Shown: positions 949-58,046 of the stretch, piece by piece
Layout of the letters: each line of letters begins with the position of its first letter
Numbering within the stretch: position 1 is the stretch's first letter
Translations under genes and position numbers: made by a program
Assembly (NCBI GenBank): GCA_051294905.1
Contig: CM119373.1
Location: 37,572,001-37,636,000 of the forward strand
Direction: 5' to 3'
Source of the DNA: Botryllus schlosseri
Lineage: Eukaryota
DNA length: 64,000 bases
The notes under the pieces: model-generated
What the model was told of the DNA's origin: nothing
The model's database searches: none
The model's input: the letters and a program-made list of their open reading frames with translations, nothing else

Positions 949-1255
949 TTCCTTCCGCATCGGCCCCGGATCCGACTTCTACAGACTGCACGTATCCGGA
1001 TACTCCGGGAATGTAACCGTCGGAGACAAACTCGCATATCACAACAATCGACAATTCTCGACGAAGGACGCGGACCACGATGGTCCGTTGTCGAGGCATT
1101 GCGCTGCTGAATACGGAGGAGGCTGGTGGTATGGCAACTGCCACGACAGCAACCTGAACGGAAACTTCCACAAAATAAGCACCAAGGGAATTTGGTGGGA
1201 ACACTACAACCTGCGTTTCTCGGAGATGAGGTTCCGGAGAAGAGCGGGAAATTGA
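949..1255 (+). CDS. Terminal exon of a fibrinogen-related domain (FReD/FBG; ficolin/tenascin/angiopoietin-like) gene
   Basis: Acceptor ccattcag| at 948; translation has FBG C-terminal motifs YRLHVSGYSG, FSTKDADHD, CA..YGGGWWYGNCHDSNLNG, GIWW, FSEMRFRR then TGA; upstream exons outside window or not recognised. Confidence 0.9.
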
Positions 1256-1316: not shown

Positions 1317-1604
1317 TCACGCCGACGTATGAATGTATTGACTGTTATTGACCAGACCCACTTGTGTATCGTTTGCTAAATCAGTTCCATCACGTTTAGT
1401 GAGCTTCAAACGTAATCTCAAGAATGTGTTTTGTAGATCCATATATCGATCCGTCCTTGGTAATTGTACTTCCATGACATTACCTAAACTATTGGGTTTG
1501 ACGACGACATATTGCGATTCTTCAATACTGGTTTGTGTGTGGGGTATACTAAATATGTTTAATCCGGAGTTATGACATTCTCGGGAACCCGCATGCATCA
1601 ACAT
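1317..1604 (-). pseudogene. MCP: Major capsid protein (double jelly-roll, PY) N-terminal ~87 aa, truncated by element breakpoint
   Basis: EC..SGLNIFSIPHTQTSIEE...YMDLQNTFLRLRLKLTKRDGT...VGLVNN matches the recalled Polinton MCP N-terminus; frame runs into host sequence and stops 8 codons later. Confidence 0.85.
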
Positions 1605-1609
1605 AGTTC

Positions 1610-1981
1610 TTAGTCGAATATATCCTGTTGTTTACGACGACGTTTGGATGAAGTGTTTTTTGACTTTGTTTTTTTCCTTTTTATAGCTTTTGGGGTTAAA
1701 ATTTTATCAATCACTCGACCGCCAGCTTGTTTACTTCTCTTGACAACACTAGACTTGATCGAGTTACCCCGTAATAGATCTCTCGCTATTTCACCTCCAG
1801 TCCGTAACAATTGACCGCCAGCGTATTTCGCAATAGGTGTCACTAAACGACCGAGTGATTTAAACAAACTCCCGATGCCGGATCCGGCTTGAACTCCACC
1901 ACTGAAATATCCATAACCATCACCTGTCTGGTTATAATGACGATGGACAGAATGATGGTCACACGTGAAAACAACTTTCAT
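1610..1981 (-). CDS. Basic virion core/membrane-lytic protein (PZ/cupiennin-like position between minor and major capsid genes), 123 aa
   Basis: QxGxG motifs followed by amphipathic GIGSLFKSLGRLVTPIAK, then K/R-rich tail; syntenic position as in animal Mavericks; family name assigned from recall, not search. Confidence 0.65.
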   Translation of the reverse strand: MKVVFTCDHHSVHRHYNQTGDGYGYFSGGVQAGSGIGSLFKSLGRLVTPIAKYAGGQLLRTGGEIARDLLRGNSIKSSVVKRSKQAGGRVIDKILTPKAIKRKKTKSKNTSSKRRRKQQDIFD

Positions 1982-2373
1982 AATCGCTTCCTAATGTTAA
2001 ATGTAGCTTGCAATGAACGACTTATTATATTTATAGGTTCCCCAAACTCATCCCTGAGGTAAAGACATACAGAATCTACAACATCTTTCGAAACAGGGAA
2101 ATAATACGGATTTGTCGCTATCCAATTATGTGCGACATCGCCAGGTGTCAGCGGTATAACTCGTAATAAACGCGCTAACGTATCTCCAAGTAAGTGAGGG
2201 TGAATAATATCACAATACACAAACAAATATTGACCAATCGCCGGTTCGGTTAAAGTGAAATCGATCTCCATGAGGGCTAATTCGCAATATCTCGTCGGGA
2301 TGTTGTTGATGGTGAGTAGTCTGTGTTCAAAATCAGCACCAAGCATAGAGGTGGTTAACGTCACTATTTTCAT
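1978..2373 (-). CDS. mCP: Minor capsid protein (penton-like single jelly-roll) paralog 3, minimal 131 aa
   Basis: ELALMEIDF...YLFVYCDII...GDTLARLLRV...PYYFPV...LRDEFG motifs shared with the two upstream paralogs. Confidence 0.75.
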   Translation of the reverse strand: MKIVTLTTSMLGADFEHRLLTINNIPTRYCELALMEIDFTLTEPAIGQYLFVYCDIIHPHLLGDTLARLLRVIPLTPGDVAHNWIATNPYYFPVSKDVVDSVCLYLRDEFGEPINIISRSLQATFNIRKRL

Positions 2374-3041
2374 CGCGCGTGGAGTGTCAATGTGGTCTCT
2401 ATATCATGTACTAACTGACCGTATTGGTCCCTGATGGTGATTTTTATATCGCGGATGTGGTTAATCGACACTGGGAAATAGAACGGTTTTTCAAATACAA
2501 CTTCTTGTCTCGTACACGTCTCGTTATTTACTTGGATCACACGAAGCAATTGACTCATGTAATCACCCACCGGATGATGTCGTAGTACATTGATATACAC
2601 AAATAGATATCTGAGGTGGGGTTGAGTTGGTTTAGATTTGATCGACGTGACATTACATACTGGTGTCGACACTTGATCAACTACACTGAAATAATTTGTG
2701 AATATATCCGTGGGGTGGAGTGTGATACGTTTCGGGTAACGAATTCGGAAAAGTTCATCGTTGATTCTTTCGGTGAAACAGTGTTTGAAACTTTCAGATA
2801 ATATTCTTCGCATCAACTCGAGGTTGTTTGCATAATTCCCAAGTGGTGTTAGGTACGCTTCTACTATTCGATCTTTCTCATTATGTAGCTCCCAGAGTGC
2901 TTGATCACGATTGATTATAATTCGATCAAGAGATTCACTGACAAAACTCATATCCATCAACGCAAGCTCATTACAAATAATTTCATTCGGTAACACCACC
3001 GAGAATTCACCCTGGGTGCCAGACAACGTGATGTAACTCAT
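2370..3041 (-). CDS. mCP: Minor capsid protein paralog 2, 223 aa
   Basis: ELALMDMSF...YLFVY...VGDYMSQLLRV...KPFYFPV...IRDQYG...LTLH. Confidence 0.8.
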   Translation of the reverse strand: MSYITLSGTQGEFSVVLPNEIICNELALMDMSFVSESLDRIIINRDQALWELHNEKDRIVEAYLTPLGNYANNLELMRRILSESFKHCFTERINDELFRIRYPKRITLHPTDIFTNYFSVVDQVSTPVCNVTSIKSKPTQPHLRYLFVYINVLRHHPVGDYMSQLLRVIQVNNETCTRQEVVFEKPFYFPVSINHIRDIKITIRDQYGQLVHDIETTLTLHAR

Positions 3042-3868
3042 ATTGAATCAACAGCTCTACGACGGAAGCGTAGGGTTACTGCCACTGGTGCTTTTCGAAA
3101 TTTAATGGGGTTGCCAGCTGCATCACGTAGATAAATTCGTATCGTTCTAAAATTGTTTCTCGCTAAAGCAAAGAAGTATGGTTTTGGGAATATGTTGATT
3201 TGGTTTTCATTCGGTTTAGCGGTTACAGTAACCACCCGTAAAAGTTGTTGCAGTTTGTTACCGTGTGGCCTTGGTTGTATCAGATCGCAATACACATAAA
3301 CCTTATCAATCCGTTCCAACTTTATCGCAGGTGTAAATATAAATTCTACCACTCCGCGGCGACGAGATACAACGCGTCTAAATGTTATTGTATCCAACAC
3401 AGAACCAAGTGGTATCAATCCGTAAGGTTCGGGTGAATCATGTGTGGTACGGGGTACGCGTCTGGCGCTAGAGTCTGCGGTGTCGGTATTTATGGGTACA
3501 CCCTGCTTGGGTCTTTTTTTACTCGTAACTAATCTTCTGAATGTGATTCTAAAGTCACCGAATCCTTGTAAAATGAAAATGTCCCCCATGTAATATTTCT
3601 CGTACGATTCTAACATTTCACCGATGTTGTAATACGAGCCTTCGGGAATATAATACTGTTCGGTGTATCCATTCGCATCGACAAATCCAAAACCGATACT
3701 TTTCGCTGTCACTTCAATTCGCGGCTGAAAATCATGGGGGAAGGTCAGCTCACATAATCCTAGCTCATGGCGATTCATTTCTAATTCTTTATAAAGTTCC
3801 GTTTGAAAATCTGTGCTAGTATTCGGAAATTTATCCAAACTCGCATTCGAAGGTAGAGTCAACAACAT
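3038..3868 (-). CDS. mCP: Minor capsid protein (PX/penton) paralog 1, ~276 aa from ATG at 3868
   Basis: Canonical TLPSNAS..FPN...F N-terminus, ELGLCELTFP, VYVYCDLI..G...LLRV, PYFF, LRDAAG; ORF track extends it upstream to 3925 but homology starts at MLLTLPSN. Confidence 0.85.
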   Translation of the reverse strand: MLLTLPSNASLDKFPNTSTDFQTELYKELEMNRHELGLCELTFPHDFQPRIEVTAKSIGFGFVDANGYTEQYYIPEGSYYNIGEMLESYEKYYMGDIFILQGFGDFRITFRRLVTSKKRPKQGVPINTDTADSSARRVPRTTHDSPEPYGLIPLGSVLDTITFRRVVSRRRGVVEFIFTPAIKLERIDKVYVYCDLIQPRPHGNKLQQLLRVVTVTAKPNENQINIFPKPYFFALARNNFRTIRIYLRDAAGNPIKFRKAPVAVTLRFRRRAVDSI

Positions 3869-5895: not shown

Positions 5896-5908
5896 TTGGC
5901 TATTTATA
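5896..5908 (-). promoter_or_regulatory. TATA-box motif TATAAATAGCCAA upstream of PW-like gene
   Basis: ~26-38 nt upstream of ATG 5870; identical 13-mer at 13184-13196. Confidence 0.55.
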
Positions 5909-6515
5909 CCATCGGGCTATAAACCACCATGGTTTCACCAGGAAATATATTGGTCATAACTCGTCGATTTTCAGGTGCTTCTTGCGTGAGATCGAGGAAT
6001 AAATAACTATGAGGTTGTCTAGCAGCGTCACGATAAGCCTCTGTTAAAAATCTAGAGTTTGGGTACATTTGTCGACCAAGAAAACTGATCTGTTGTTGGT
6101 CGCGCGGATTCTTGAAAATCACCATATACGAGCTTGAAAGACTCAAGTCACGTGCTCCTTTACCCTTGTGATACAGGTTCTGCGTGATATAGCAAATTGA
6201 CTTGGCTGAATGATGAGAAAATCTTGTAAAGTAGTCTGCAATTTTCGCGGTCTCAGTCATGAAATCATCCACTATAATCAAGGTATCTTCAGAGCAAACC
6301 TTCAACTCTTCTAAAATATCTAGACCGACGTGGAATTCTACATTATGCATCGTCTTGAAAACCTCCTGATAATTATTGTAACAATATACGACCCTGGATA
6401 CACTAGGTTTAATCATTGATGTCGCATGCCTAATCAGCTTTGCAACAAAAGTAGTCTTCCCACTTCTTGAAGGACCACTCACAATACACGCGAATGGGTG
6501 AATCAATTCCATCAT
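5904..6515 (-). CDS. ATPase: A32-like FtsK-HerA DNA packaging ATPase, 203 aa
   Basis: Walker A GPSRSGKT, Walker B LIIVDD, ITQNLY, YLFLD motifs. Confidence 0.95.
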   Translation of the reverse strand: MMELIHPFACIVSGPSRSGKTTFVAKLIRHATSMIKPSVSRVVYCYNNYQEVFKTMHNVEFHVGLDILEELKVCSEDTLIIVDDFMTETAKIADYFTRFSHHSAKSICYITQNLYHKGKGARDLSLSSSYMVIFKNPRDQQQISFLGRQMYPNSRFLTEAYRDAARQPHSYLFLDLTQEAPENRRVMTNIFPGETMVVYSPMV

Positions 6516-7786: not shown

Positions 7787-10700
7787 TTACACATTCAATG
7801 GCAGGGTTGACACACCATCCTCGAGCACTCGGCGTTTGGCATAGAAATAGGAAAATGTTTTACGCTGTTGTTTGTACGTATAGACACCCCTATCTCTGCA
7901 CCGAAACCCCTTGTTCACTCCCCCGACAGATTGCCTAGATGTCAAGACACCCAGAAAAGTTTCGAAATCGACTGGGTTGGATTTCTGGAGGCCTTTGGAA
8001 GCTAATTTTTTCTTTGGTCCATCACAAAAGTAATTTTTGGATTGGAGCCCACAGAAGGATGTACCACCTTCGTACTCCACTTTCATCAAACCCGGTTGAC
8101 GAAGGTAATACGCATACGTGTCTTTACAACACTGTCTCGATCGGTCAAAAGAAACCGGATCAGCCAAAAACTCAGTTCGGTGCTCGTCACAAAAATAGCG
8201 TGGAAACCAGTTCTCGTATTCCACATAAAATTCATCTCTTTTCTCGGGGATAAGGATATCGTCGAATGAGGCTGAGTGCGAAAGATAGAGAGAGTCCGTG
8301 TCCATCATTAATAGCATGAAGCACTCGTCACGGAAATATTTACACAAGCAGTCATAAAAAAACGAGAGCATCTTAAGCTTAGCATTGTTATAAACCCAGA
8401 ACCCCACTTGAATACAGTTACCCCACTTGATCGTTTTAGGTCGCTTCGTTACTTCAAATAGATCAGCGTTCAATTCATCATATTTCACAAAAAAGCGATC
8501 CTCAACATTGCCATCCAATTCACTTTTATCACAGTAGGTGGTTCGTTTGAATTTACGTGGATTCATCAAGACCCGGCCATAGCTGCTATTTCCGGCTAAT
8601 TTTTGCGTCAGGGCAATGATCTCTAGGCTAGGGTCACGATCTCCAGCACGTCGACAATCCGAGACATTTTTCGCGAAGGTGTCAAAACATGTCTTTTTGG
8701 TGAATTCGACCGCCTCATGAATTTTGGATATAATCAATCCGTGTTCAACATACCACTTGATCAAGTCGGAGGTCAACAAGATTTTCTTACCCCAGTATGA
8801 AGCAACTAACATGCGCGTGGGTTTGGTGAGTAATTTGCGATCAATGGCGAACTGTTTCATTTGACCTGACAAATGCTCGCGAGACACCATTGTATTTTTG
8901 AATATCGGACATAGTTCAACAAACTTCCTTTGCAAATGTTTTGGTGTAAAAATATCGACTGATAAACATCCAAAGAATGTACCGGTCATTACCATCTCCA
9001 TCAATTTATGCGCGGTGACAGACTTGGTTCGAGTCAATTGCGATTGAATTCCATCAAGATATCGCACAATATCAGGATTTTCCTGTTTCTCCGTGCGCCA
9101 GTCGCATTCCCATTTACATATGACTTGATAATTGAGGCTTTTGTAATAATCATGAACACGTTTAGTTCGTTCTCGACGTTCCAAGTCATCACAACCAAAT
9201 CTGCATTGATGCGCGTGAAAATGACACCCAAGAAAAGACAAGATTACCCCTTGACCAGCCGAATTACGATAGAACCCATCAGCGGGGTAATTACGGGCTC
9301 CTACGCGGATTTCAGGTCCATTAAAAGCATGGTGGACATGTACATTGTGAATATATGAATACCAGTTTAGCCATTGAGCTGCTGTCTCCCCCCATTTCGG
9401 TGCGGTCTTGACAGGTTTGAATTTAGTACACTCAGCATCGAGTGGTTGCCAATGTACCGGGAAACCAGTTGGACTAGGTTCACTCAAAGCAAAAAGGTAT
9501 AACGAATTGCTGTCCAGCCCTGTTACATGTTGGGTGATCTGAGCGTTTTCCTTATGAAAAAATTCTTTGATTCGAGTTTCACCCTGTTTTTGATATCGAT
9601 GGAAAATGACCGACGGCCCACCCACTAAATTGTCTCTGAATAGTGAAACCAGGTCTTGGTGTTTATCATTGAACAAGGTGAAATCGCGTGGGATGCTATT
9701 GAAAAGATGCCTCGATACAACCCCGGGTAGGGAGACAGCTTCTTTGAATATATCCACACTGAATTGACTTTTGAAAGATTGAAATTGTTTTTCTAACCCC
9801 TCAATGAAGTAGTGAGTATCGATTGCGTTGTACCATTTGAGATAATCACGTAAGGTTGTCATTTTGTTATCGTTCCAAACCTTCAAACAGTTTTCATATT
9901 CAGCTGTGGATATATTACGATCTTCTAGTGAGCTGTAAAAGTCGCTGTGGCTAGGAAGACTCGGATAATCTAACTTTTCCAAACTAGTCAGAAACTCGTA
10001 CGGAAAATGACCTTTAGCGGCGCTACATTTGAAGGCTTTCAAATAAGCATCGTACGAGAACCCGGGTGCCAAGTAATTTACAATGTCCAAAAATTTAAGT
10101 CTGTTAGTTGTCAACGAGAGGAAGTTGTTACCTCGTTTCAATACATTCAGATTTTCATCAACGAGTAAACCCATCAAGTACTCTTTGAGACAGTTCAAGT
10201 CATACCGACCACCATTGAACGATAAAACAGGGATTTGTTTTAAATATCGCATAAACTCCTCTTGTAAACGTTCAAGAGGTATTTTTCTTTCGGAAGGATC
10301 GAGCGCTCTCATTTCGGTAATTTTAGTTTCGAGCATGTCCAAGTAGTGTTGATATTCCGTCAGTAACAATCTGAATGACTCACTTTGAATATCATGAAAA
10401 TGATCAACCATTTCCGCACACAAGTCATTTGGGTCACCGTTCGAGACAATTACATACGGCTCCAAGAACCCTTCCACATTAGAAGAGATGCTAACCGAAA
10501 TGGGAATATGTTTACACTCCCATGAAGTTTTGGAGGAATCTGGAATATCACACTTTTCAAACATGCTCTCTATGTCGAACGCGATACGGTATTTGAAATA
10601 ACGAAGCTGGTGAGGAACAAACACCCCTTCTAAATCAAGCTTTTCAAAGATGTTCAGAGGAGGTGTATACACGCCACCTGGAAACACTTCAACGACACCC

Positions 10701-11629
10701 GTTGTACATTTGTGTCTGGTCAATTCATACTGTTCGTTAAATAATCGTAGACAAACATCACATTTATAGGTCTCTATATACCGCCTCATGTCAGTAATGA
10801 GACAGAAGTGTGCATTTTCTAAATGTAGGTACACAGGTTTCCCTTCAAACGTACTACGTCGGAGAGCGCTAGCTTTACCCTCTGTCTTGGTGTACACGAT
10901 TATAGCAACATTAAACAAATCCTCGATATCGTCCAACATGTCAAGAGTTACACCAGATTCTACATTGATCCCACAAACCGAAGTGAATTGTTGAGCCAAT
11001 GCTTTGGCATCTTTGCCCAGTGAGTGGGCGATGCAACGAAAAGCGCACAGATTGTCCTTGTACAGATGTCGATTGGGTCGACTTAACATTGTCAAGATGC
11101 ATTTCGATTTTGTAAGCCATGTCGGTAGCTTAATACCAGCACAACCAATCAGTAAATGACCCGTAGGGTATACATAAAACTGGACATTGGTCAGACAGAC
11201 TGGCAGTGACTTTGTATCTACTCGAGAGTTTTGTAACAAATCAAGTGCGGTTTCCAAGCGAATAGATTCAACAAATTCATCGAATTCAGGTAGTGTTGAA
11301 ATTAGCGCCGGTGTTTCTAATACACTATCGATGTTTGCCGAAGCATGAAAATACCGAAATCTCAGAGTCTCAGTGTGATATAAAATGAAGGCATGTGCGT
11401 AGTTCACTTTAAAGGTATGTGACTCGGAGAAAAATATCGCTTGGATATCGCGGTAAACATCCGTTAGCTCACGATCGATAACTCGAATATTATACACATG
11501 ACTGGTCTTTTTCACTACATACGATTTTATCGCTTGCCAGTTCTGATTTACAACTTCTTGGCGTTCGTCACCGATCTCTGGTGGTGCATTCTCTTCTTCG
11601 CGAACACGATTCCGTCTGCGTCGACTCAT
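7787..11629 (-). CDS. pPolB: Protein-primed family B DNA polymerase, ~1280 aa from ATG 11629
   Basis: Exo I AFDIES, Exo II FNGGRYD, Exo III YNAIDT, motif A DSNSLY, motif B KLAGNSSYG, motif C MDTDS; no internal stops; acceptor ttttacag| abuts ATG. Confidence 0.97.
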   Translation of the reverse strand: MSRRRRNRVREEENAPPEIGDERQEVVNQNWQAIKSYVVKKTSHVYNIRVIDRELTDVYRDIQAIFFSESHTFKVNYAHAFILYHTETLRFRYFHASANIDSVLETPALISTLPEFDEFVESIRLETALDLLQNSRVDTKSLPVCLTNVQFYVYPTGHLLIGCAGIKLPTWLTKSKCILTMLSRPNRHLYKDNLCAFRCIAHSLGKDAKALAQQFTSVCGINVESGVTLDMLDDIEDLFNVAIIVYTKTEGKASALRRSTFEGKPVYLHLENAHFCLITDMRRYIETYKCDVCLRLFNEQYELTRHKCTTGVVEVFPGGVYTPPLNIFEKLDLEGVFVPHQLRYFKYRIAFDIESMFEKCDIPDSSKTSWECKHIPISVSISSNVEGFLEPYVIVSNGDPNDLCAEMVDHFHDIQSESFRLLLTEYQHYLDMLETKITEMRALDPSERKIPLERLQEEFMRYLKQIPVLSFNGGRYDLNCLKEYLMGLLVDENLNVLKRGNNFLSLTTNRLKFLDIVNYLAPGFSYDAYLKAFKCSAAKGHFPYEFLTSLEKLDYPSLPSHSDFYSSLEDRNISTAEYENCLKVWNDNKMTTLRDYLKWYNAIDTHYFIEGLEKQFQSFKSQFSVDIFKEAVSLPGVVSRHLFNSIPRDFTLFNDKHQDLVSLFRDNLVGGPSVIFHRYQKQGETRIKEFFHKENAQITQHVTGLDSNSLYLFALSEPSPTGFPVHWQPLDAECTKFKPVKTAPKWGETAAQWLNWYSYIHNVHVHHAFNGPEIRVGARNYPADGFYRNSAGQGVILSFLGCHFHAHQCRFGCDDLERRERTKRVHDYYKSLNYQVICKWECDWRTEKQENPDIVRYLDGIQSQLTRTKSVTAHKLMEMVMTGTFFGCLSVDIFTPKHLQRKFVELCPIFKNTMVSREHLSGQMKQFAIDRKLLTKPTRMLVASYWGKKILLTSDLIKWYVEHGLIISKIHEAVEFTKKTCFDTFAKNVSDCRRAGDRDPSLEIIALTQKLAGNSSYGRVLMNPRKFKRTTYCDKSELDGNVEDRFFVKYDELNADLFEVTKRPKTIKWGNCIQVGFWVYNNAKLKMLSFFYDCLCKYFRDECFMLLMMDTDSLYLSHSASFDDILIPEKRDEFYVEYENWFPRYFCDEHRTEFLADPVSFDRSRQCCKDTYAYYLRQPGLMKVEYEGGTSFCGLQSKNYFCDGPKKKLASKGLQKSNPVDFETFLGVLTSRQSVGGVNKGFRCRDRGVYTYKQQRKTFSYFYAKRRVLEDGVSTLPLNV

Positions 11630-12150
11630 CTGTAAAATTAATAACATGCGGTCAAATTCAGCACTTGGGGAACATTAAACTAGTCTTACTTACATTCTAG
11701 TTTCTTCGCCGGTGTCTTCCTGGATTCTTTATGCTTAATAAAACAAGCAACACATCATACTATGTTCGCTAACATAGTGTTGTAGCAGATAACTTACCAG
11801 TAGACTCGTGTTTTCAACTTGAGTTTGCTCCGTCTGTCAACAACATAGAGAATTACATCATGTTCACTAGTTCTGAACAGCAATAACTTACCTATGCAAT
11901 TCTTTACTTCAATTTCGATGCTTGTTTTGGCTGTAGGATAAACGAATAACATATTATATTCATAAATCAAAGTAGTCATACCGAATAACTTACTAATTAA
12001 CTCCTTATCCAGCGATCCGCGTTCGAATATACCCAGACAGTCAGTCACGTTGTTCGCTGCTCGACACCCGGAGAGAAAGACCTAAACCGCTGATTCGAGA
12101 TTACAAGAGCGCCAGCACCACTAGTGGTTGCGCTTTTAGAATCTATTGTT
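11630..12150 (-). other. Putative multipartite non-coding 5' leader of pPolB (introns 11931-11993, 11834-11891, 11734-11797, 11630-11693; micro-exons 11892-11930, 11798-11833, 11694-11733)
   Basis: Four GTAAGT donors each paired with a pyrimidine-rich (Y/T)AG acceptor 58-64 nt away; exons lack ATG, every intron contains ATG. Confidence 0.7.
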
Positions 12151-13570: not shown

Positions 13571-13924
13571 ATGGCAACTAGCGCGATTATTGAGAATTAC
13601 CTTCTCTACTATCATAACTTGACAACCCCCATATTGAGCGAAACGGAAAAATTCATCCACGGAGTACTAGATTTCTATGTACATGGAGAAAACGTGAGCC
13701 GTGTTCGAAAGTGCGATTTTACCGCATTGGTTAACTCGATTCGATCATACGGCATCGACTGGAATGGGGTTTTTAGTGTCATAAGCATTGCGGCGATGAA
13801 AAGTGACATACGCACCCTAGCGGTGTACAGAGATTTAGCAACAGACATCTTGAATACTCACTACAGTACATTGATAAGTGACTGGGTACGAAGAAAATTC
13901 ATTCGTGTCGTTTGTCGCTTGTGA
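13571..13924 (+). CDS. Candidate Bcl-2-fold protein, 117 aa
   Basis: F.ALVNS.RSYGIDW.GVFSVIS aligns without gaps to BH1 ([23 protein letters not shown] of Bcl-xL); ISDWV resembles BH2; ATG 13571 follows acceptor tttttcag at 13548. Confidence 0.45.
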   Translation: MATSAIIENYLLYYHNLTTPILSETEKFIHGVLDFYVHGENVSRVRKCDFTALVNSIRSYGIDWNGVFSVISIAAMKSDIRTLAVYRDLATDILNTHYSTLISDWVRRKFIRVVCRL

Positions 13925-14086
13925 ACGGTATCATTTCTTACAGAACTCCTGTAAAGTTTATTTCAATCCAAGTCTATTCACGCGGGTCATCAGGATTATA
14001 CAAAGACTGTTAACTCACTCAATACCACGCACCTAATTCTATAAATATCGACGGATTTGTTGATGACTCTCACTTTATCAAACGAT

Positions 14087-14698
14087 ATGACATCGAACAG
14101 CGTCAGCAGTATGCAAGTCGGAGCAGTTTCAAATTTTCACGTCGGTGTCAAATTCGTCTCATCGCCCAAAAGAGGTGGCGTTAGTCAATATCTCAAAGGT
14201 ATATTCATCGACGGCAATAACGAAGAGATATCTTTCACGTGTTTCAATCGTGAATTGTTCGGGATCATTGAGAAAGCATTCTCCAAACGAAAAAAACTCA
14301 TGGTCAAATCCGGTTGGGTCCAAATTGACAAGTTTACTGGAAAACCTGCTGTATTACTGGGACGGGCTTCGTCAGTAACTCTGCATGGAAAATCGAGACA
14401 TACGACTGAAGAATACCCATTATTGACCTGTGAATCAGTATACGGAAATAAAGATGAATACGTCTCGATCGCCGCTACTTGTGTTTCTGGAGAGGAGAAG
14501 ACGGTCAATTCTGATGCCGGAAAGGAGTTGAAATTATACAGTTTTACATTGAAGGATGATACTGGTGAGGTGGTTTTGGACCAATGGAACAAAGCCTCGC
14601 TCGTACCCGGGAAGAAATATCAACTCACTCGTGTTAAAAACTGTGTCGGCAGCTTGAAAATCGATTCGTTAACTGGACTTGTTGAATTGAAAGAATAG
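14087..14698 (+). CDS. Tandem OB-fold, RPA/SSB-like single-stranded DNA-binding protein, ~203 aa
   Basis: C-half KTVNSDAGKELKLYSFTLKDDTGEVVLDQW...GKKYQL is an RPA-type OB signature; N-half has a similar FIDGNNEEISFTCF strand pattern; TATAAATA at 14040-14047. Confidence 0.6.
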   Translation: MTSNSVSSMQVGAVSNFHVGVKFVSSPKRGGVSQYLKGIFIDGNNEEISFTCFNRELFGIIEKAFSKRKKLMVKSGWVQIDKFTGKPAVLLGRASSVTLHGKSRHTTEEYPLLTCESVYGNKDEYVSIAATCVSGEEKTVNSDAGKELKLYSFTLKDDTGEVVLDQWNKASLVPGKKYQLTRVKNCVGSLKIDSLTGLVELKE

Positions 14699-15098: not shown

Positions 15099-15180
15099 TT
15101 GCAAGCCACGTTTCCGTTTGTGCGGTTATTGCTGGTGACTCGTACATATTCAACACCGCACGAGAGATGGCTGAAAGTAC

Positions 15181-15487
15181 GAATCACGACCGCACCCATA
15201 AGAACACATGGCGAATCACCACAGAACCCGTAAGAATACACGACAGGCGAATCGCCGCCACCGCCTATAGCAAAAAAGGCGAGTCACGACCACGAGTTTT
15301 CACGGCGAATCACCGCCACCGCCTATAGCAAAAAAGGCGAGTCACGACCGCACCCATAAGAACACATGGCGAATCGCGGCCCAGAGGAGGGTCTAAAAAG
15401 GCGAATCGCCACCCCGGGTTTCCAGGCGAATCGCCACCCCACCCATTAGAAACCTATGGCGCATCACGACCGATCTACATAACTACT
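15181..15487. repeat. Maverick terminal region: subterminal tandem repeats and terminal ACTACT
   Basis: cacgaccgcacccataagaacacatggcgaatc x2, gccaccgcctatagcaaaaaaggcgagtcacgacc x2, many ggcgaatc cores; ends ACTACT at 15487. Confidence 0.75.
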
Positions 15488-16175
15488 GCCGGTATATTTC
15501 GAACGTCTCTATTTGTAATTAATCCCAAATATTTTCTTTCAGCATTGCTTTCTACTGGTTGGAATTAAGCCAAATTTAAGTTATTTTAGATAATCTAACA
15601 ATTTTAAGAAGTAGCCTCTTTTTTGAGATTCTGTCCTCATTTTTGGGAATTTGTTTTGGTAAATGTAGGGCAAATTCGACTAAGACAACAGTAAATCAGC
15701 ACTAAAGTAACGCTCCGGCGACTATTTCGGCAGCTGAGCAGGTAAGTTGACGTTTTTTCTGGTCAACCACCTGATATGATGTGAAAGCAAAACTGTACCT
15801 CTACATAAGCGTTTATCTGTTGATTCTTTACCAGCTTGTATCTAGCTAGACGTGATTTCGTAGGTTCTCTATGAGATAGTATGTAGACCTGATTCGTTTA
15901 TTCTCTATAAGCTATTTGTGAGCGGTCGTCGATGTGCTCGTAATAAAAACTGAATGCTTTTATTTGTGAAATATCAGACTGACAAGACAGATATTTGATT
16001 TAAAGTTCTAAGATTAGTAACGTTATTGTATTGGCGGCCTGTCTCGTCTATCTGTAGCATCGGTATATGAGGCCAGGAACTGCCTGTTATCTGCCTAACT
16101 AAATAAACTTGTGCCAACACTATGATAGGGAGAAAATAAGCATGTTTGGCAAGCAAGGAATTCGATATCACCCAA

Positions 16176-16399: not shown

Positions 16400-19300
16400 A
16401 TAGTTTGAAGTGTTCTAGTTTATTTCATGTCCAAGCCTATTGCAATGGCTGCAAAGCTGATCGAATAAATGTTCTCAGGAATTTGAAATACGTGATACGC
16501 TACATTACGTATTTCTTTAAATGTCTGTTGAATACATCAGGGTTATCAGTATTGGCCTTCAGTGAAACAATATCACACAACGCTAATCTGCAACAGATAG
16601 AATATTGATCATTTCTTATAAGGTACTGGTGTCCAGACGTAGTCTTTCTAGTTTATTTCACGCTCAAGCATTACAACGGCTGTAAAGCCATCTAAATAAC
16701 TCTTCTGACGGCGCATCAAGCTAAATTTCATGTTTTGGGGAATGTAGGTTATATATATATTTGCTGATTTTTCACTTAAAGTGCTAGTTATGTACGTAAC
16801 CGCCTCAAAAACGTGACGTGACACCGGTCAGGCCCTAGTCAAGCTCCGCGTAAAATATCGAATGTCGGGTATTGAAGACAGATATAAAAAGTCCGAAACG
16901 GTCTGAAATCACGCGCTGCAAGCATCGCTGGTCACAAAATGCGTACCGCGCCCGGAAAACGCAGACTTACCGGTCCGCGAAAACCAGAAAACAAATAGGC
17001 TCGACCGATTGTCCTCGGCTTTTACAAAATCGGGTAGAAAAAAACAGGCGGGCCACGCATTAAAAATAACCAAAACGTCGCAAACACAGTGATGATTCAG
17101 CCGGTGGGTGCGTGGGGTCGTCATGCATCATGTTGTTGCATAACCCGGGTGGGTGAGACTGGCAGACAATTACCAAAGAATTCCAACTTCTATATACATT
17201 CGGAAAACGACAAAAATCATCCTTTTTAACTCATACGTAATGCAGCAAAGCCCGTGATGTCAAGTATGGGCAGAAGAACGCATATTTTCACCCGAGAGAT
17301 GGTAAGCGGGCGGAAAAAGGGGGGCGAAATTCGCAGCAGCCCCCCGATTTCAAATCGGCAGCAGCAGCTGAGAATTGTTATAACATCACAGCAGGTTATC
17401 ATCATCGAGCAGAGATTTTCGGGAAAAGCGCAAGGTCGTAGAAATCAAACACAGATTTTCATGTCGAAACAAAAATCGCGTCATATCCACGATGTCTCGG
17501 GGCCGGCCGTTGTTACAAAAAACGGTCTATTGTCGGGTAATATTTGCAGCTTTATGCCAAAAAAACATGGCAACAAAATAGTTTAGGGTTTTCACAACAG
17601 AAACAGTCGATATACGATCATTTTTCACAAAATCCAGGTCGACATTTTCAAACTTTTCCACATTTCTCCCGATTACGAAAAGACCCCAAAATATCTTCCT
17701 GGGGGAGTGGGGGCCTTTTTTGGAAGGCACCATCAATTTGTCATTGCTACGTCGCAAATTATTTTGCGGGAGACAAAAGTCATTGTTTCAACCAACAATG
17801 GTGGGTTCAGGGGTGCTTCTTTTTAGACATGGTCGTGGTCTTGTCATTGTTACGTGAAAAGTTTGCTTGTCTGAGACACAAAAGCGATTGTTTTTTTGAC
17901 AATAGCGTCATTTACAGGTTCAAGTGGGCAACTTTCATTGTATGGAGATTGTTACCTTTTTTCAAGGTGTGATCCTTGTCTGCTGCAGAAATTTTTTTTG
18001 TTCAAACACAGCATTTGTATTAACGTGGGGCAAAGGTGGGTGCCCCGACTACATCTCGTTAAGAGGTATCGTGACAGTTTCCCCTTTCCTGGGCCTGGTC
18101 TCGGCCAACGTCAGTTTCTTGATCTCGACCTCGTCAGACTTTGATTTGTTGGCAGCAGGCGATGTTGGAGAGGGGGGCCGGGGAGGTTCCGGTTGAGCGG
18201 GCAAATTCAAACTCTCGTCGGCCATCGGCTGTTGCTCGGAGACCTCGAACTTTCCGAAAGCCTTGTTCGATTGGCTGCTCCTGTGGGCGGCATTCTTGCT
18301 CGCTTTGGATCGACGGCCGGGTCTCGGCCGGTTCACCTCGTCCTCGGTCTGGGTGAATATCAGTAATATGTAAAGGGAATAAAGTTTTACTAAAAAAAAA
18401 TTTAGTTGCTCGACTCTGTTTCGTTCCTTAGTGCGCAGGTTTGACGGGGCAGCCAGTAGGGTAACCATGATAGTTATTGCCAGCCATTATAGCGGACGCG
18501 CTAAATCAAATAAGCGACGATAGCGATATCAGATGTCAATATGACCTATTTCGCATACAAATGATTCCCGCTAATTGGCAGTACGCGGCATCGATGATAC
18601 GAATTAGTGAATTGGCATTTCCACAGGACGGGATTTCTAGTTTTAAATGTGAGTCTCCCTGGCTACACACCTAGGGTTTTAATACCGACAACGAGCTGCT
18701 AAATATCAACCTGGGGCCTACGATCCTCGATATGGTTGCGCCCGATAGAGTCAGTCCAGCAATGAAGTCTATACAATATACATAGAACATAGGCACACAC
18801 AAACACTGTCCTATTTTCGCTCCAATTAAAGAGACAATCACGAAACTAACTCGTGAATTATTTTAAATCCTTGAATATTTAGTTGTATTAAGTTAATTGG
18901 CCTTCATTAGATACTAATTAGTGCTAATTACAGGTTGAAAGCTGCATGAGTAACTCGGCGCCTATGACTCTGGACATGATTAACCCAAAACAAATACGGA
19001 AATTATCCATACAGCAAGAAAAACACAATACTTGATCACCCTGCACTCTGGCATTTCCAGGATATGAAGCAAAATTATGACTCAGACCCACCATTTTCCT
19101 CGGGTCTCGTGCTTCTTTTGGCTTCCCGTCTTGAAAGAAATATTGCACAGACGACAAAAGGCTGAGTCGACCCTCGGACTGGGACTCCTAAAACAAAACA
19201 CATGCAGATTCATCCTCGACCCCGAATTATTACCCCGTTTTCACCCACCTTCACTTTCTCCATGGGTATAAACTGGCTTTTCTTGGGAGCCTCCCCTGTC

Positions 19301-19888
19301 TTGTGTGCACCACGAACCAGTGATGAGACCGGGGGTACTTTCTGGGGGCCGACACGCCGACAGTGGGTGAACTGACTTTGAGTTGTTGAGCCCCGGGTTG
19401 GAATTCTGCCCCGAAAGATGGTTGGGGTGCTGGAATAGAAACGGGGTCATTTTAGGGTTCTCAGAGTCTAGACTCAAATAGATATTTCTTTAAATACGGA
19501 AAATGACTCAAAACATCTCCTTACATACAGAAAGGGGTCAGACTCACCCTGGTTCGGCTGCTGCATCCGTTGGGGTCGAAACGGGGGCCTGTTCGGGCCA
19601 TCTGCTGTTGCTGAGTCATCGGCTGGTAAGACTAGGGCACGAAGTGTTGTTGGGGCATCTGCATACTGGGATTCTGCTTGCCCATCATGTCCAGCGGAGG
19701 CCTGACTAGCCCCATCTGTTGTTGCGGGGCCATCTTGTTGCTGCCCCACTGCATCATGTTTCTCGGCCCCATGTTGGGGTTGAAGGACATCTGATTGTCG
19801 GAGGTTCTCGATGGGAGGAACCCGCTCGATTGCGGGCCTCGTAACGTTTGGTTCATATCGCCTGGAATAGCAGTAAAGACGGAATTAA
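16400..19888. repeat. Segmental duplication copy 1 (paralogous to 28385-32946)
   Basis: Near-colinear high similarity over ~3.5 kb, e.g. matching ORF-track entries 16872/28900, 17254/28900, 18049/30078. Confidence 0.95.
18049..19861 (-). pseudogene. Gln/Pro-rich gene copy C (last four exons only)
   Basis: Same exons as 30078-32919; premature TAG at 19632 (CAG in copy A) and 1-nt deletion in G-run near 19345; homology ends at ~19888. Confidence 0.75.
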
Positions 19889-21884
19889 CCCGATCGAAAC
19901 GGCACACTCATTAATGATACATGAGCGTATTTTCACGAACACGCTTTACTTAATCCAAAATTTCCTGGGTTGTTCTGGTCGTAGACAATTACAACTATTA
20001 CCGATAGATAGCTATTATCAATACGCATACGTCGAGCCATAAATAACATCTTATACTATACTTATATACTATACTTATACTATCGAATAGCCTGTTCAAA
20101 ATGCAGATTGAATACATAAAAACGTTTTGCGCAAAACACAATTCGCCACGACGTTCGCGTGAATGTGCGCGCGTGAGATAAACCAGCGCCCGTGACCTAA
20201 ATCAGCGCATCTCCGAGACATCAAATTCATTTGCAGATCTTTTCTCCTAACATGTGTTGGTTATGCCCATAGCCCATCTATTGGAATACTTATAATCAAA
20301 AATTAGTCGCACAGAAGATTCTTCGAACTGGAAGTAAAAATATGTTACGAAATAACATGCGCGGGTTTTAGCAATGTATTTTCTGTTGCTGTTGAAGATT
20401 ACGCATATTGAATATTTTTGCTAGTTATACTAATACACCAATACTGCCATGATGTTCTTCTGCGAGCTACAAGATCTCCGCTATTGATATGACAGCAAAT
20501 TTATGTCCGTAAATGGCTTCACTTCTGGTGGAAATGTTTCACGTCTTTCCCGTAGTAACGAGTAAAAAGAAATGCAAAGCTCCGGTCGCGATTCTGGTAT
20601 TGAAAGGTATTTTCGTGTCTACTCGAGATTTCCGTTCACAACGCGCAGGTCATTTATGAAAATTTGACGACCAGCAAAGCCAGGCATCAAATCCCGGTTC
20701 CATCTAATCAATGCACTTTCTTGATTCAAGGTATTTTATTCGTCCATGATTCACGAGAGAGGCAAGAGAATTCGGCGTAACTCTGTCAAAGCAGTTGACC
20801 TATTATCATTGCAGTGTGGGCAACGAATATAATTGCAATAACTTCAGTTGCCAATGCTATAATGGTTTCTTACGTTTTCCCATGTGTTGGTGGTAGATGT
20901 ACTGGCTTGTTATTATTTCGATTTGCTGTTGTATTACACGTGTGATGCATTATTTCATATATTGTGTCACGCGACTCGACATGTCATTGCTACATATGCC
21001 GATATGCATAGCCTACCTGATATACTATACGACAGTCTCACTATTGCGCTGTTCGGCTTAGAGAGGCAATAAATGTCCGTGTTCCGTTTGTTAGTGTTAG
21101 ATGTGGTTTGTTGTTATCTGTCATTTCAACCACTAAATATTCAGTTCTAGTTGTTGTACAGCAGCGAGGTTCGTTTCAGCACATACTACTATCTCGTACA
21201 AAGGATGGATAGGCGATTACATGGCGTTATGAAATGAATCATTTGAACGTCCGCGATACTGTGTTATCTTCATTCTAGACATGTTTTCTTGTTGTGTTGT
21301 GGCAGTAACTATCTAGCAAAGAGGGATATTTATGGTATTTACGTTAATAATAAGATATAGAAATTGATGTTATATCAGCATTACACTCATAGGTGGTCAA
21401 AGTAATCGAGAATGCTACTCAAGTAGAAGTAGTACTGTTAAAAGCAACCTACACATATTTCAGGTCGAATTAAATTTGGCTGACTTGAAATCTAGCCAAG
21501 TATGTAAGTAGTTGTGAAAACAGTCATGTACGTTCGCATGTACTGTAAAATTTAGCAAATTTAGCTCTGTGGAATGTGCAGAGAGCTCGATTAATAGTAA
21601 TGCATTCCAGAAGGTATAAATCTTCGACAGCATCAGCATTCGACCGCATCATGGGATGCAAATGATTATTTTGCTACGGAAAAGCAAAACTAATCTTTTT
21701 TTACTCGAATACCATGTTTGAGAAAAAGTCATAGCACGACGCTCTTTCCCGGTATGATAAATACCATATACTGTTGTTAATTTCCGTAAAAGAGAGTCAA
21801 TACATGCACCTGATTTTAAAATTGGCTTTGCTTAACGTCTATGAAAATAAATTCTTTTTGGCTGGCACTGCGTGAAAGCAGCCC

Positions 21885-28384: not shown

Positions 28385-31300
28385 CAGTTCAATGTGTCCT
28401 AGTTTATTACCATGTCCAGGCCTAGCAATGGCTGTAAAGCTGATCAAATAAATGTTCTAAGGATTTTGAAATACGCGATACGTTACATTCCGTATTTCCC
28501 TAAATATCTGTTGAATACATCAGGGTTATCAGTATTGGCCTTCAGTGAAACAATATCAGACAACGATAATCTGCAACTGATAGAATATTGATCATTTCTT
28601 ATAAGGTACAGGTGTCCAGATGTAGTCTTTCTAGTATATTTCACGCATAAGCATTACAACGGCTGTAAAGCCATCTAAACTCTTCCGAAGGCGCATCAAG
28701 CTAAATTTCATGTTTTTGGGAATGTAGGTTAAGGGGGGAGGACCCCCTGAACTCATCAAATTTTTCAATATTCAATTTCAAAATATATTTGCCGATTTAC
28801 CGTTCAAAGTGCTAGTTATCCATGTTACCGCCTCAAAAACATGACGTGACACCGGTCGGGCCCTAGTCAAGCTCCGCGTAAAATATCGAACGCCGGGTAT
28901 TGAAGACAGATATAAAAAGTCCGAAACGGTCTGAAATCACGCGCCGCAAGCATCGCTGGTCACAAAATGCGTACCGCGCCCGGAAAACGCAGACTTTCCG
29001 GTCCGCGAAAACCAGAAAACAAATAGGTTCGACCGATTGTCCTCGGCTTTTACAAAATCGGGTAGAAAAAACAGGCGGGCCTCGCATTAAAAATAACCAA
29101 AACGTCGCAAACACAGTGATGATTCAGCCGGTGGGTGCGTGGGGTCGTCATGCATCATGTTGTTGCATAACCCGGGTGGGTGAGACTGGCAGACAATTAC
29201 CAAAGAATTCCAACTTCTATTTACATTCGGAAAACGACAAAAATCATTCTTTTCAACTCATACGTAATGCAGCAAAGCCCGTGATGTCAAGTATGGGCAG
29301 AAGAACGCATATTTTCACCGGAGAGATGGTAAGCGGGCGGAAAAAGGGGGGCGAAATTCGCAGCAGCCCCCCGATTTCAAATTGGCAGCAGCAGCTGAGA
29401 ATTGTTATAACATCACAGCAGGTTATCATCATCGAGCAGAGATTTTCGGGAAAAGCGCAAGGTCGTAGAAATCAAACACAGATTTTCATGTCGAAACAAA
29501 AATCGCGTCATATCCACGATGTCTCGGGGCCGGCCGTTGTTACAAAAAACGGTCTATTGTCGGGTAATATTTGCAGCTTTATGCCAAAAAAACATGGCAA
29601 CAAAATATTTTAGGGTTTTCACAACAGAAACAGTCGATATACGATCATTTTTCACAAAATCCAGGTCGACATTTTCAAACTTTTCAACATTTCTCCCGAT
29701 TACGAAAAGACCCCAAAATATCTTCCTGGGGGAGTGGGGGCCTTTTTTGGAAGGCACAATCATTATGTCATTGCTACGTCGCAAATTATTTTGCGGGAGA
29801 CAAAAGTCATTGTTTCAACACGACAATGGTGGGTTCAGGGGTGCCTCTTTTTAGACGAGGTCGTGGTCTTGTCATTGTTACGTGAAAAGTTTGCTTGTCT
29901 GAGACACAAAAGCGATTGTTTTTTGACAATAGCGTCATTTACTGGGTCAAGTGGGGCACCTTTCACTGTATGGAGATTGTTACCTTTTTTCAAGGTGTGA
30001 TCATAGTCTGGCCACATGGAGTTTTGTTGTTCAAACACAGCATTTGTATTAACGTGGGGCAAAGGTGGGTGCCCCGACTACGTCTCGTTAAGAGGTATCG
30101 TGACAGTTTCTCCTTTCCTGGGCCTGGTCTCGGCCAACGTCAGTTTCTTGATCTCGACCTCGTCAGACTTTGATTTGTTGGCAGCAGGCGATGTTGGAGA
30201 GGGGGGCTGGGGAGGTTCCGGTTGAGCGGGCAAATTCAAACTATTGTCGGCCATCGGCTGTTGCTCGAAGACCTCGAACTTTCCGAAAGCATTGTTCGAT
30301 TGGCTGCTCCTGTGAGCGGCATTCTTGCTCGCTTTGGATCGACGGCCGGGTCTCGGCCGGTTCACCTCGTCCTCGGTCTGGGTGAATATCAGTAATATGT
30401 AAAGGGAATAAAGTTTTACTAAAAAAATTTTAGTTGCTCGACTCTGTTTCGTTCCTTAGTGCGTAGGTTTGATGGGGCAGCCAGTGGGGTCACCATGATA
30501 ATTATTGCCAGCCATTATGTACTCATGGTATGCATATGCGCAGATCGCGTGTATGTGTATCATGAGTCGGTGTATATGCCGCAAAAACATCAAGGACAAA
30601 AATAAACTACGTCCTTCCTTTCCTTTCATTATAGCGGACGCGCTAAATCAAATAAGCGACGATAGCGATATCAGATGTCAATATGACCCATTTTGCGTAC
30701 AAATGATTCCCGCTAATTGGCAGTACGCGGCATCGATAATACGAATTAGTGAACTGGCATTTCCAAAGGACGGGATTTCTAGTTTTAAACGTGAATCTTC
30801 CTGGCTACACACCTAGGGTTTTAATACGGACAACGAGCTGGTTAATATCAGCCCGGGGCCTACGGTCCTCGATATGGTTGCGCCCGATAGATTCCGTCCA
30901 GCAATGAAGTCTATACATAGAACATAGGCACACACTAACACTGTCCTATTTTCGCTCCAATTAAATAGACTAGCACAAAACCAACTCGAGAATTATTATA
31001 AATCCTCGAGTATTTGGTTGTATCAAGTTAATTGGCCTGAATTGGATACTAATTAGTGCTAATTACTGGTTGAAAGCTGCATAAGTAACTCGGCGCCTCT
31101 GACTCTGGACATGATTAACACAAAGCAAATACGGTAATTATCCATGAGGATTTCGGATTGGTGAATTCTACTCTTTGCTCCATAAACCAAGAAAAACACA
31201 AAACTTTACCACCCTGCACTCTGGCATTTCCAGGATATGCAGCAAAATTACGACTCAAACCCACCATTTTCCTGGGGTCTCGCGCGTCTTTCGGCTTCCC

Positions 31301-32946
31301 GTCTTGAAAGAAAGATTGCACAGACGACAAGAGGCTGAGTCGACCCTCGGTCTGGGACTCCTGAAACAAAACACGTGCAGATTCATCCTCGACCCCGAAT
31401 CATCACCCCGTTTTCACCCACCTTCACTTTCTCCATGGGTATAAACTGGCTTTTCTTGGGAGCCTCCCCTGTCTTGTGTGTGCCACGAACCAGCGATGGG
31501 ACCGGGGGCACTTTCTGGGGGGCCGACACGCCGACAGTCGGTGAACGGCCTTTGAGTTGTTGAGCGCCGGGTTGGAATTCGGGTGCTGAAATGGAAACGA
31601 GGTCATTTGAGGGTTCTTAGAGTCTAGACCAGTGGTTCCCAACCTTTTTCGACTAATCGCCTTTTCAAACTCCACACCGATCATCGCCCCCCAAATATTG
31701 GGAACCGAAAAATGATAATACATACTGAAATCACCAGCTAGTTGACTAAGAAAAAGGTCAACTTGTCGGCTCGACCTCGAAATCACACTTTTCCAGCTCG
31801 GGCGGACCCGTGGGTGTAATGACTTCGTTAAGTAATGACATTTTGTGGCCTGTCTGCTATGTTAAAAGATATTCAAATCGCCCATGCGTACTAAACTAAA
31901 AGATGCACACGATTTCAGATTGGTATTTCTGCACTGGCAATTAATTTTTCTCTGCGAGATGGCAATTTTTGTGGGATTCTGATTGCCAGGACAGGAACAT
32001 TTGGCGCCAACCAATTAGGCGCCTATGGGCAATTAAATATATATGTATATCGTATATATATCGAAGTCGGTCAGCCTAAAGGCAGTCCTTTTCCGCCAAG
32101 GTTTTCTCGTTTTGGCACTCTATTCGGAGTCGCATGTTACATGGCATGAAACTTCATATGTCTTGGTGCGTCATGGTGTGATAGTGGCTGACGCCGAGAT
32201 GCCCATTTCTATAACTCATGCGTATTATTTCTTGAAGGAAGGGTATCCAATAAGCAAGAAATAAGCGACTAAGAAATGGCGCGCATCGCGAAATTTATTT
32301 GAAAAATCTGCCCAAATTTTCAAAATATTACTCTATAAATAATGTTAATTCACGAAAAACATATGAGCTCCCCATCCCAATTGTGGGTTTGGGTGTGGCA
32401 GTTACGGTCATCAACGGCAATCGCCCCCTTCGTCCATTTTCGCCCCCTTGGCTATTTTCGCCCCCTGGACCGACAAAACGCCCCCTGGGGGGCGATATCG
32501 CCCACGTTGGGAACCACTGGTCTAGACTCAAATAGATATTTCCTTAAATACGGAAAATGACTCTACACATCTCCTCACATACAGAAATGGGTCAGAAGAC
32601 TCACCCTGGTTCGGCTGCTGCATCCGTTGGGGTCGAAACGGGGGCCTGTTCGGGGCCATCTGCTGTTGCTGGGTCATCGGCTGGTAAGACTGGGGCACGA
32701 AGCGTTGTTGGGGCATCTGCATTCTGGGATTCTGCTTGCCCATCATGTCCAGCGGGGGCCTGACCAGCCCCATCTGTTGTTGCGGGGCCATCTTGTTACT
32801 GCCCCACTGCATCATGTTTCTCGGCCCCATGTTGGGGTTGAACGACATCTGATTGTCGGGGGTTCTCGATGGGAGGAACCCGCTTGATTGCGGGCCTCTT
32901 AACGTTTGGTTCATATCGCCTGGAATAGCAGTAAAGACTGAATTAA
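28385..32946. repeat. Segmental duplication copy 2 (contains extra 890-bp hAT MITE)
   Basis: Paralogous to 16400-19888. Confidence 0.95.
31630..32519. mobile_element. hAT (Charlie/Buster-type) MITE, 890 bp
   Basis: TIRs CAGTGGTTCCCAAC / GTTGGGAACCACTG; 8-bp TSD GTCTAGAC (31622-31629, 32520-32527); empty site with single GTCTAGAC at 19466-19473. Confidence 0.95.
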
Positions 32947-56508: not shown

Positions 56509-58046
56509 CTAGCCAGTAATAAAAACTTTCGTCAGACGCATCGGAGTCGAGATCAACTGACGATTCGCGACGCAGTATTGCTTTAATATTAGATGTTGTA
56601 GAGGCGCATGGCCTCCGATCTCATTCTTTCCTCTATTGATTTTCCCACATCGTAAGTATATCATAAGGAGCATCACTGTGGCAATGTCAAGACGTACTCC
56701 CCAATCCGCAAGTGCCACGTATTCACCCCAATCTCAATAATTTATTTAGACTACGAGCCAGAACGGGGCTGAAGATGTTTACGATTGCATTGCATACGCT
56801 TGGACGTTTCTTGGTCCATTTCAACACAGCATTGCCACGCTATCAAGCCCGTTCAAGCCCGTTCAAAACTACTACTACTACTTGGTTTGAGAAAAGTGAC
56901 GTTGGCCCGATATGAAAAGGATTCAGGATTGTATTTCTTTACAATATAGCAGAGTCATCCTCATAGGGTGATAAACCGAACTTCTGGGGGAATTGCATAT
57001 ATATTGCTGTCATTTTTTTGTCCTCTCTCTGCTCATGTTATCATAATTACCGCTAGAGCTGAGTGAGGTGACTTGGAAAATGTAGGACCCGTAAGTCATA
57101 ATTAAACATATTTGGGCGGACCCGTTTGTATAATGACTTCATTACGTGATGGTATTTCGTGGCCTGTATGGGCTCAACTATCACATTATCGGCGTGATTA
57201 TAGCTGCAAACATGTACCTGTACCGTTTGAAATTGCGCTTGGGCTATATCTCATTATTTATGCCACGTTCAGATATTTTGCAGCCATCAGTGTATAACTG
57301 TAGCCTATATTCACGGATATAAATCGGTTCCGTGTATTACGCGATGATACTCGATGATCAAACTAACGCAGTTCACTAAAATAGCGGGCAGTCAGTGTTA
57401 CATTACTGTCCCGTGGGACTGCGAAAGCAATTTTACACAGGATTGAAACAGCTCAGCTTGAGCCGGACTAGAGTACCGGTGCGAGTAATGACGGACTTCG
57501 AGTATCTTCAACTGACTGCTATAAGTCCAGACCACAGACACAATAATATCCCCGTTACGATGTATTGTAGAATCAAGGTCAATCAGTCTGGTCCAATAAC
57601 ATAACGTTAAAAAATACGCTGGCAATACTCTGAGAAATTACAACAACATCAATTAGAATGTAAGAGCGATAAGACCACCCTGTTAACTGCGCGACGTTCT
57701 CAGACAAAAGAATGAACACGTGCGCTCGATGCCTAGCCTCGTTCTGTGAGGTAGTCATGTGTAACGAACCGTAGAATACGGGCGGAAAGCCACCGTGACA
57801 TAGCCGCCCCCGTGACGAAACGTAATTGCAAAGGTGGTTATCGGTGAGCCACAAAAAAAATGAAGGAATGGTGGTTTTCAGCTTGACAATGGGGGAGTGA
57901 AGAAACATGTAAAACAAAAGCAATTGTACCGAACGCTGACACAGCGCCAGTAAGCGAAGTCAATGTACAAAGAAAAAAGCACAACATTGGCAAGTGGGGT
58001 GCGAGGTTGGCAAGATACAAAGAGCATGCAATAAAAGAGAGCAAAA

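Follow-up and report, generated by a model that had tools for sequence, protein, structure and literature searches.

Our data show that the penton slot of a Maverick/Polinton (adintovirus) element in Botryllus schlosseri holds three open reading frames (ORFs), named A, B and C here, and that complementary losses have divided conserved penton motifs among them. The element lies in the window, i.e. the whole stretch of 64,000 nucleotides that was analysed. The reading which we prefer, and to which we give about an even chance, is drawn from the genes: A, B and C are old, selected duplicates that have lost different ancestral parts and that likely meet in mixed five-fold vertices. What is new is the conserved triplet with its complementary motif loss; penton paralogs and insert-less pentons were already known, hence the gain is limited. 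The features of the window copy are as follows.

1343..1604, minus strand: putative 5' fragment of the major capsid gene; sister copies have a 423-aa ORF here
1610..1981, minus strand: PW, a conserved 123-aa ORF named by its position between the penton and major capsid genes
1978..2373, minus strand: penton C, 131 aa, a bare eight-strand jelly roll by its model, with a DE loop of about 7 residues
2370..3041, minus strand: penton B, 223 aa, jelly roll with a DE insert of about 107 residues
3038..3868, minus strand: penton A, 276 aa, jelly roll with a DE insert of about 141 residues
4125..5195, minus strand: RVE integrase with a C-terminal chromodomain (Pfam rve E 1e-15, Chromo E 5e-9)
5904..6515, minus strand: P-loop ATPase, likely the packaging ATPase (weak P-loop matches; Pox_A32 E 0.007, below the cut-off)
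7787..11647, minus strand: family B polymerase (Pfam DNA_pol_B_2 E 5e-7)
15178..15488, no strand assigned: terminal repeat array (repeat family D13), likely the right end

The gene pair by which such elements are recognised, a protein-primed family B polymerase and an RVE integrase (with a chromodomain in adintoviruses), is present, and the order of integrase, penton(s), PW, major capsid gene and protease in the window family agrees with the int-mcp-pw-Mcp-pro order of vertebrate Mavericks (PMC8097293, accessible text). PW alone separates the penton genes from the major capsid gene, and a place next to that gene or one gene from it is the criterion for a penton gene in the accessible text of PMC4028283. 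In the window the element stops short at 1343, within the putative major capsid gene; all 29 other copies match the window from 1343 onward only, and loose ends at 1343 were seen in three sequencing runs. A fibrinogen C-terminal domain exon (1019-1222, plus strand, E 7e-15) lies just beyond this broken end. At the capsid position the sister copies carry a conserved ORF of 423-425 aa, which has no Pfam match and no relevant PDB sequence match, and after it a cysteine protease gene that the window copy lacks, being broken off; aligned across the family, this gene resembles protease S273R (E 7e-5), and an SHW motif is conserved in it. Two accessory ORFs on the plus strand near the element end (13571-13924 and 14063-14698) have no Pfam match. 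Judged by eye, we take them to resemble a Bcl-2-like helical protein and an OB-fold DNA-binding protein, respectively. The repeat array ends in ACTACT at 15483-15488, the matching left end being lost from the window copy, and Maverick ends have been described as (AGT)2//(ACT)2 (PMC8097293, accessible text).

The initial annotation had proposed three tandem penton, or minor capsid, paralogs with common N- and C-terminal motifs. These motifs were indeed found in all three ORFs, and the profile-profile comparisons gave probabilities of 98.9 for C against A, 99.2 for C against B and 99.7 for B against A, with E values from 2e-17 to 4e-25. Scores this strong mean that the likeness of A, B and C is not due to chance. 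The match between B and A reaches into the start of the insert, where G-x-Y/F occurs in 7/7 A and 7/7 B; thus the A and B inserts are related. The late genes at 1610-3868 are linked by stop-start overlaps: the A-B and B-C junctions each overlap by 4 nt (ATGA), and ATGA stands at the A-B junction in all seven families. AATAAA is absent between the A start and the capsid gene in the window region and in six other families. A programmed -1 frameshift fusing A to B or B to C is rejected for now, as no canonical slippery heptamer was found upstream of the penton junctions in the seven families.

Pfam holds no family for penton A, B or C, and a PDB sequence search with the C alignment as query gave no match; the proposed penton identity is borne out by the models of B and C, which match solved pentons. 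In the C model (pLDDT 82, built from 7 sequences) eight strands form a sandwich and a short loop links the third strand to the fourth, strand letters (B-I) being given by order; this agrees with the earlier claim that the 131-aa copy is a bare jelly roll. Comparison with 48,161 solved chains returned six matches at Z>=8, all from virus capsid structures: Sputnik 3j26_N (Z 11.6, rmsd 3.1, 129 aligned), PBCV-1 6ncl_a6 (10.9), the mavirus penton 6g41_A (10.9), EhV-201 (9.9), PBCV-1 8h2i_bG (9.7) and an aviadenovirus chain (8.9). Those that can be named from the literature are pentons, and the best non-viral chain reached 6.4. Foldseek against the PDB found nothing at E<=0.001 for the C model, the best match being the PBCV-1 capsid chain 6ncl_a6 (E 0.002); in BFVD the best match was a 161-aa Drosophila adintovirus protein (E 1e-7, TM 0.79). 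The B model is confident in the core only, the insert being modelled at low confidence (pLDDT <50, residues 43-69 and 83-140), and it matches the same structure set as C with Z from 11.1 to 7.8 (PBCV-1 6ncl_a6: Z 11.1, rmsd 3.1, 113 aligned; mavirus penton: Z 10.2). Both shorter ORFs are therefore penton-like jelly rolls by their models. For penton A the evidence is one of sequence: 203 library proteins are found with its profile, and its profile likeness and its membership of the canonical penton family point to a penton with the same single eight-strand jelly roll. By model strand order and insert counts the variable insert lies between strands D and E, where C has a short loop only, and the mavirus penton insert sits at the same DE position (PMC6048507, accessible text). 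Both penton models also match two different BFVD proteins of Tetraselmis viridis virus S1, M4QZG2 and M4QR75, of 300 and 379 aa, which is a hint that two penton-like proteins may occur in this Polinton-like virus as well.

The triplet is not confined to the window family. We examined 25 loci of the genome, a non-random sample chosen from C matches and a canonical-penton search, and 13 of them carry the triplet (families F1-F4, F1 being that of the window; one locus has C cut short), while the other 12 carry a doublet (F5-F7 and a related pair); no single-penton locus occurs among the 25. The gene order A-B-C-PW-MCP is conserved in four families and the two-gene state in three. Beyond this genome, scans of viral and metagenome contigs gave no usable locus; one match of 22 residues was set aside. 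In the doublet families the second gene overlaps PW by 23 nt, so the doublets have no room for a third gene. Insert lengths in A, B and C are 141/107/7 in F1 (counted on a sister copy of the same family, 95-100% identical to the window, and close to the initial estimate of about 145/110/9), 142/109/7 in F2 and 128/133/4 in F3 and F4, and the two genes of F5-F7 have 135-141/112-122. A stepwise shrinking of the insert, which had been put forward as a feature of the set, thus fails as a general rule, since in F3 and F4 the second insert is the longer one (133 vs 128). The graded series is peculiar to F1 and F2 and is incidental; the conserved pattern is two insert-bearing copies and one bare copy. 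From family to family the pentons have changed faster than the major capsid protein has (F1 vs F2 identity: MCP 79%, A 56%, B 53%, C 62%), and C is kept in four families whose C proteins share only 35-62% identity. Beyond the protease, a gene for a ubiquitin-conjugating enzyme (UQ_con, E 2e-48 and 4e-47) is present in the doublet families, one of which has a caspase-domain gene as well (Peptidase_C14, E 2e-13). These genes (L056:1185-1655, L060:488-967, L059:7571-8311) recur in several copies and are thus likely element cargo.

The division of motifs among the copies is more informative than the graded insert sizes. Among 44 single-domain library pentons taken as reference, a BC-loop motif, P-S-N-A-S with a later P-N, is 84-100% conserved, and a V-G-D in the EF hairpin is 77-100% conserved. 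In 7/7 A the BC loop still has S-N and the later N, and in 7/7 B and 4/4 C the loop is shortened and its motif gone. Conversely, VGD is found in 7/7 B, VGD or LGD in 4/4 C, and VGD in 0/7 A, where the site reads HGN, HGN, FGS, VGG, SNG, SSG and DSG. In the window, A keeps PSNAS...PN and has HGN in place of VGD; B has lost the BC-loop motif and keeps VGD, and C has lost it and keeps LGD. The same holds across the window family, with HGN in 29/30 A, VGD in 30/30 B and LGD in all 29 C that the pattern read. Core penton positions are mostly kept in all three copies. Both motifs occur in 87 of 113 library proteins from the A profile (8 of the rest were not parsed, 16 have a VGD variant and 2 escaped the BC pattern); for the C profile the figure is 51 of 86, with 16 not parsed. 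Either search favours proteins like its query, yet the motif that the query lacks still prevails among its matches. Census proteins without the BC motif mostly look truncated at the start, except for the B-like P0128 and P0133. VGD is also missing from P0005 and P0006, the two nearest outside relatives of A, which are the only library proteins with an A-like TGG. In capsid jelly rolls the BC and DE loops lie outside and the EF loop inside (PMC9617893, accessible text). By analogy with the capsid jelly rolls of PBCV-1, the BC-loop surface of A likely faces outward and the VGD hairpin of B and C inward.

The duplications are old, as the triplet spans four families and the doublet three. In the main tree (133 core columns, 30 rows; a tree of 82 rows was a quick search only) four library proteins group with the A, B and C genes of this genome, and a branch with 95/95 support separates this set from eight canonical pentons. 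The AU test rejects trees in which the three genes of a family pair form one group (F1/F2 p=0.0003, F3/F4 p=4e-6); thus the triplet did not arise separately in each pair, and the duplication was not local to the window family. B, C and P0128 stand on one side of a branch with weak support (78/83), and C has long core branches. A single clade of all seven B genes is rejected (p=0.015), as would be expected if the doublet gene gave rise to B as well as C. For C, the tests neither establish nor reject one origin (p=0.33), and they allow the F5-F7 doublet to have arisen locally (p=0.078). The simplest history that we infer would lead from one copy to two and then to three: a single penton would have been duplicated into A and a B/C precursor, and the precursor would have been duplicated again, with C losing the DE insert.

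All three genes are under purifying selection. A DNA search gave 120 candidates, of which 40 were scored, all of them full length and 97-100% identical, and the best 30 were analysed. An intact A frame is found in 29/30 of these sister copies, and the figure is the same for B and for C; none of the three is a pseudogene. Four sequencing runs cover the region; they were taken as RNA by guess, may be DNA and were not counted as a sign of expression. Pairwise piN/piS is below 1 for each gene: 0.20 for A (95% 0.12-0.32; core 0.07, insert 0.30), 0.28 for B (95% 0.17-0.49; core 0.19, insert 0.43) and 0.36 for C (95% CI 0.16-0.74), next to 0.09 for PW and 0.15 for the integrase; the codon-bootstrap 95% intervals are approximate, the 30 copies being related and picked by likeness to the window. 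In a protein search with C, in which 150 of 563 candidates were scored and the identity classes were counted from the rows, there were at least 90 near-full-length matches at 93-100% identity, 88 of 90 without an internal stop, as well as at least 12 full-length matches at 61-64% and at least 24 at 37-40%.

Penton jelly rolls have also been joined in single chains in other lineages. The C profile, run against 1.84 billion representatives, gave 3,378 matches at E<=0.001, and among the best 150 of them 14 long matches were examined, of which 8 fuse a bare and an insert-bearing jelly roll in a single chain. These form one group of five clusters, 36-41% identical to the first (P0130, P0135, P0163, P0225, P0229), and another of three clusters, 48-52% identical (P0125, P0198, P0247); several other long matches join two insert-bearing units. 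At every fusion junction a methionine opens the second unit, as a fusion of adjacent genes would give. Logan, ENA, JGI and NCBI are the sources of the fused proteins; the first group, which has same-length cluster mates, draws on four sources and includes a protein of the sea anemone Actinostola (KAK3743572.1). The fused proteins do not show the split of motifs between A and B/C, and single records among them may be gene-calling artefacts. Tandem penton jelly rolls in a single chain are also listed for P0126, P0137, P0220 and P0124, and such chains could possibly be a second route to the double jelly roll.

The idea that A, B and C share mixed vertices comes from the complementary loss, from the fusions in other lineages and from the penton base of tectivirus PR772, a heteropentamer of 3 P5 and 2 P31 (PMC6750898, accessible text). 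The ancestral penton would have been subfunctionalised while its products co-assembled. A would give the BC-loop surface, and B and C would give the VGD hairpin of the EF loop. The outer DE domains shown by A and by B would differ, and C, like P31 beside P5, would take up places in the ring and add no bulky crown. PR772/PRD1 resembles our case in that a bare P31 of ~126 aa and a decorated paralog meet in one 3+2 vertex, whereas P5 has a C-terminal trimeric spike and no DE-loop insert and the host is bacterial (PMC6750898, accessible text). A stricter form, for which we see distinctly less than an even chance, is that the ancestral penton was split into an obligate three-subunit vertex, with two different attachment domains at each corner. 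A would then be the outer BC-loop surface, B and C the inner VGD hairpin and the bare jelly roll a spacer, and other lineages would have reached a similar design by fusing bare and decorated jelly rolls. One would argue instead that each paralog builds its own homopentamer, giving differing vertex types, for example a common one and one special for packaging or entry. The two penton paralogs of PBCV-1, which share their jelly roll but differ widely in the DE insert, do form separate homopentamers, P1 at 11 vertices and P1v1, with its large spike-holding insert, at the unique one (PMC9617893, accessible text); this arrangement fits the same gene pattern as here, and both PBCV-1 chains, 6ncl_a6 and 8h2i_bG, rank near the top when the B and C models are compared with solved structures. 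PBCV-1 is a giant virus with two paralogs, whereas here three adjacent genes sit in a Polinton-sized element. The SGIV penton, which lacks a crown, makes pentamers alone (PMC10090177, accessible text), and complementary motif loss could also mean different partners at different vertices. However, the literature consulted gave no precedent for three vertex types in a small particle, and the single-chain fusions of other lineages could not be divided between vertices unless cleaved. We consider separate homopentamers rather unlikely, although they are the main rival reading.

It is improbable that only one paralog is the penton base, with the others forming a second ring, a collar or turret, or a pseudo-hexameric variant capsomer beside the vertex. 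Two-jelly-roll fusions would misfit a single five-membered ring and would rather suit a pair of such rings or three double units in a trimer, and the long core branches of C suggest changed contacts; nevertheless, A, B and C keep most core penton positions and there is no structural sign of stacking. The view with the least in its favour, and a very improbable one, is that the additional genes are redundant, are decaying or serve outside the virion. C is indeed the least constrained of the three (upper bound of piN/piS 0.74), and the doublet families do without it, so it is not needed by all relatives. Against decay, the near-full-length C copies of the window family are free of internal stops in the 88 of 90 cases given above (150 of 563 candidates scored), and C has been retained across four families despite the divergence in its sequence, its model indicating that the penton fold was kept.

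PX was identified as the Polinton penton by Krupovic 2014 (PMC4028283, accessible text), and the accessible text of Buck 2024 (PMC11071296) reports duplicate adintovirus Pentons in two genomes and Pentons without the DE insert in three. The genes described here are like the Polinton PX/adintovirus Penton in having a single jelly roll, a DE-loop insert and a place one gene from the major capsid gene, and differ, as far as the accessible texts go, in having three copies in a fixed order in four families, one of them bare, with complementary motif loss. The mavirus and Sputnik pentons (PMC6048507, accessible text; 6g41, 3j26) have the same jelly roll with a D-E insertion domain and match our models with Z 9.6-11.6; unlike the vertex that we propose, the mavirus crystal structure is a homopentamer of one protein. 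In the mostly open-access literature that was searched for triple or multiple Polinton pentons, only the duplicates of Buck 2024 were found. The accessible texts of 10.1101/697771, PMC8502044, PMC11131425, 10.1101/2023.08.22.554363, 10.64898/2026.10.13.758929, PMC11161782 and 10.1101/2022.07.28.501842 do not mention a conserved triplet.

Maverick particles were unobserved as of 2021 (PMC8097293, accessible text), and our literature search for a later particle structure found nothing. That selection keeps three specialised vertex proteins across diverged families speaks, indirectly, for particles being made by these elements. Two conserved penton surfaces, which single-copy pentons do not allow one to tell apart, are separated by the complementary loss, and, if the vertices are mixed, a tectivirus-like asymmetric vertex would have been re-invented in an animal virus.

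Elsewhere in the window, two elements (57407-63306 and 36276-38564) are flanked by identical direct repeats, and the larger one (57407-63306) contains a frame of 1649 codons. This frame resembles that of a BEL/Pao-type retrotransposon. A segmental duplication joins ~16400-19900 and ~28400-32950, with a spacing of about 12 kb and 91-98% identity.
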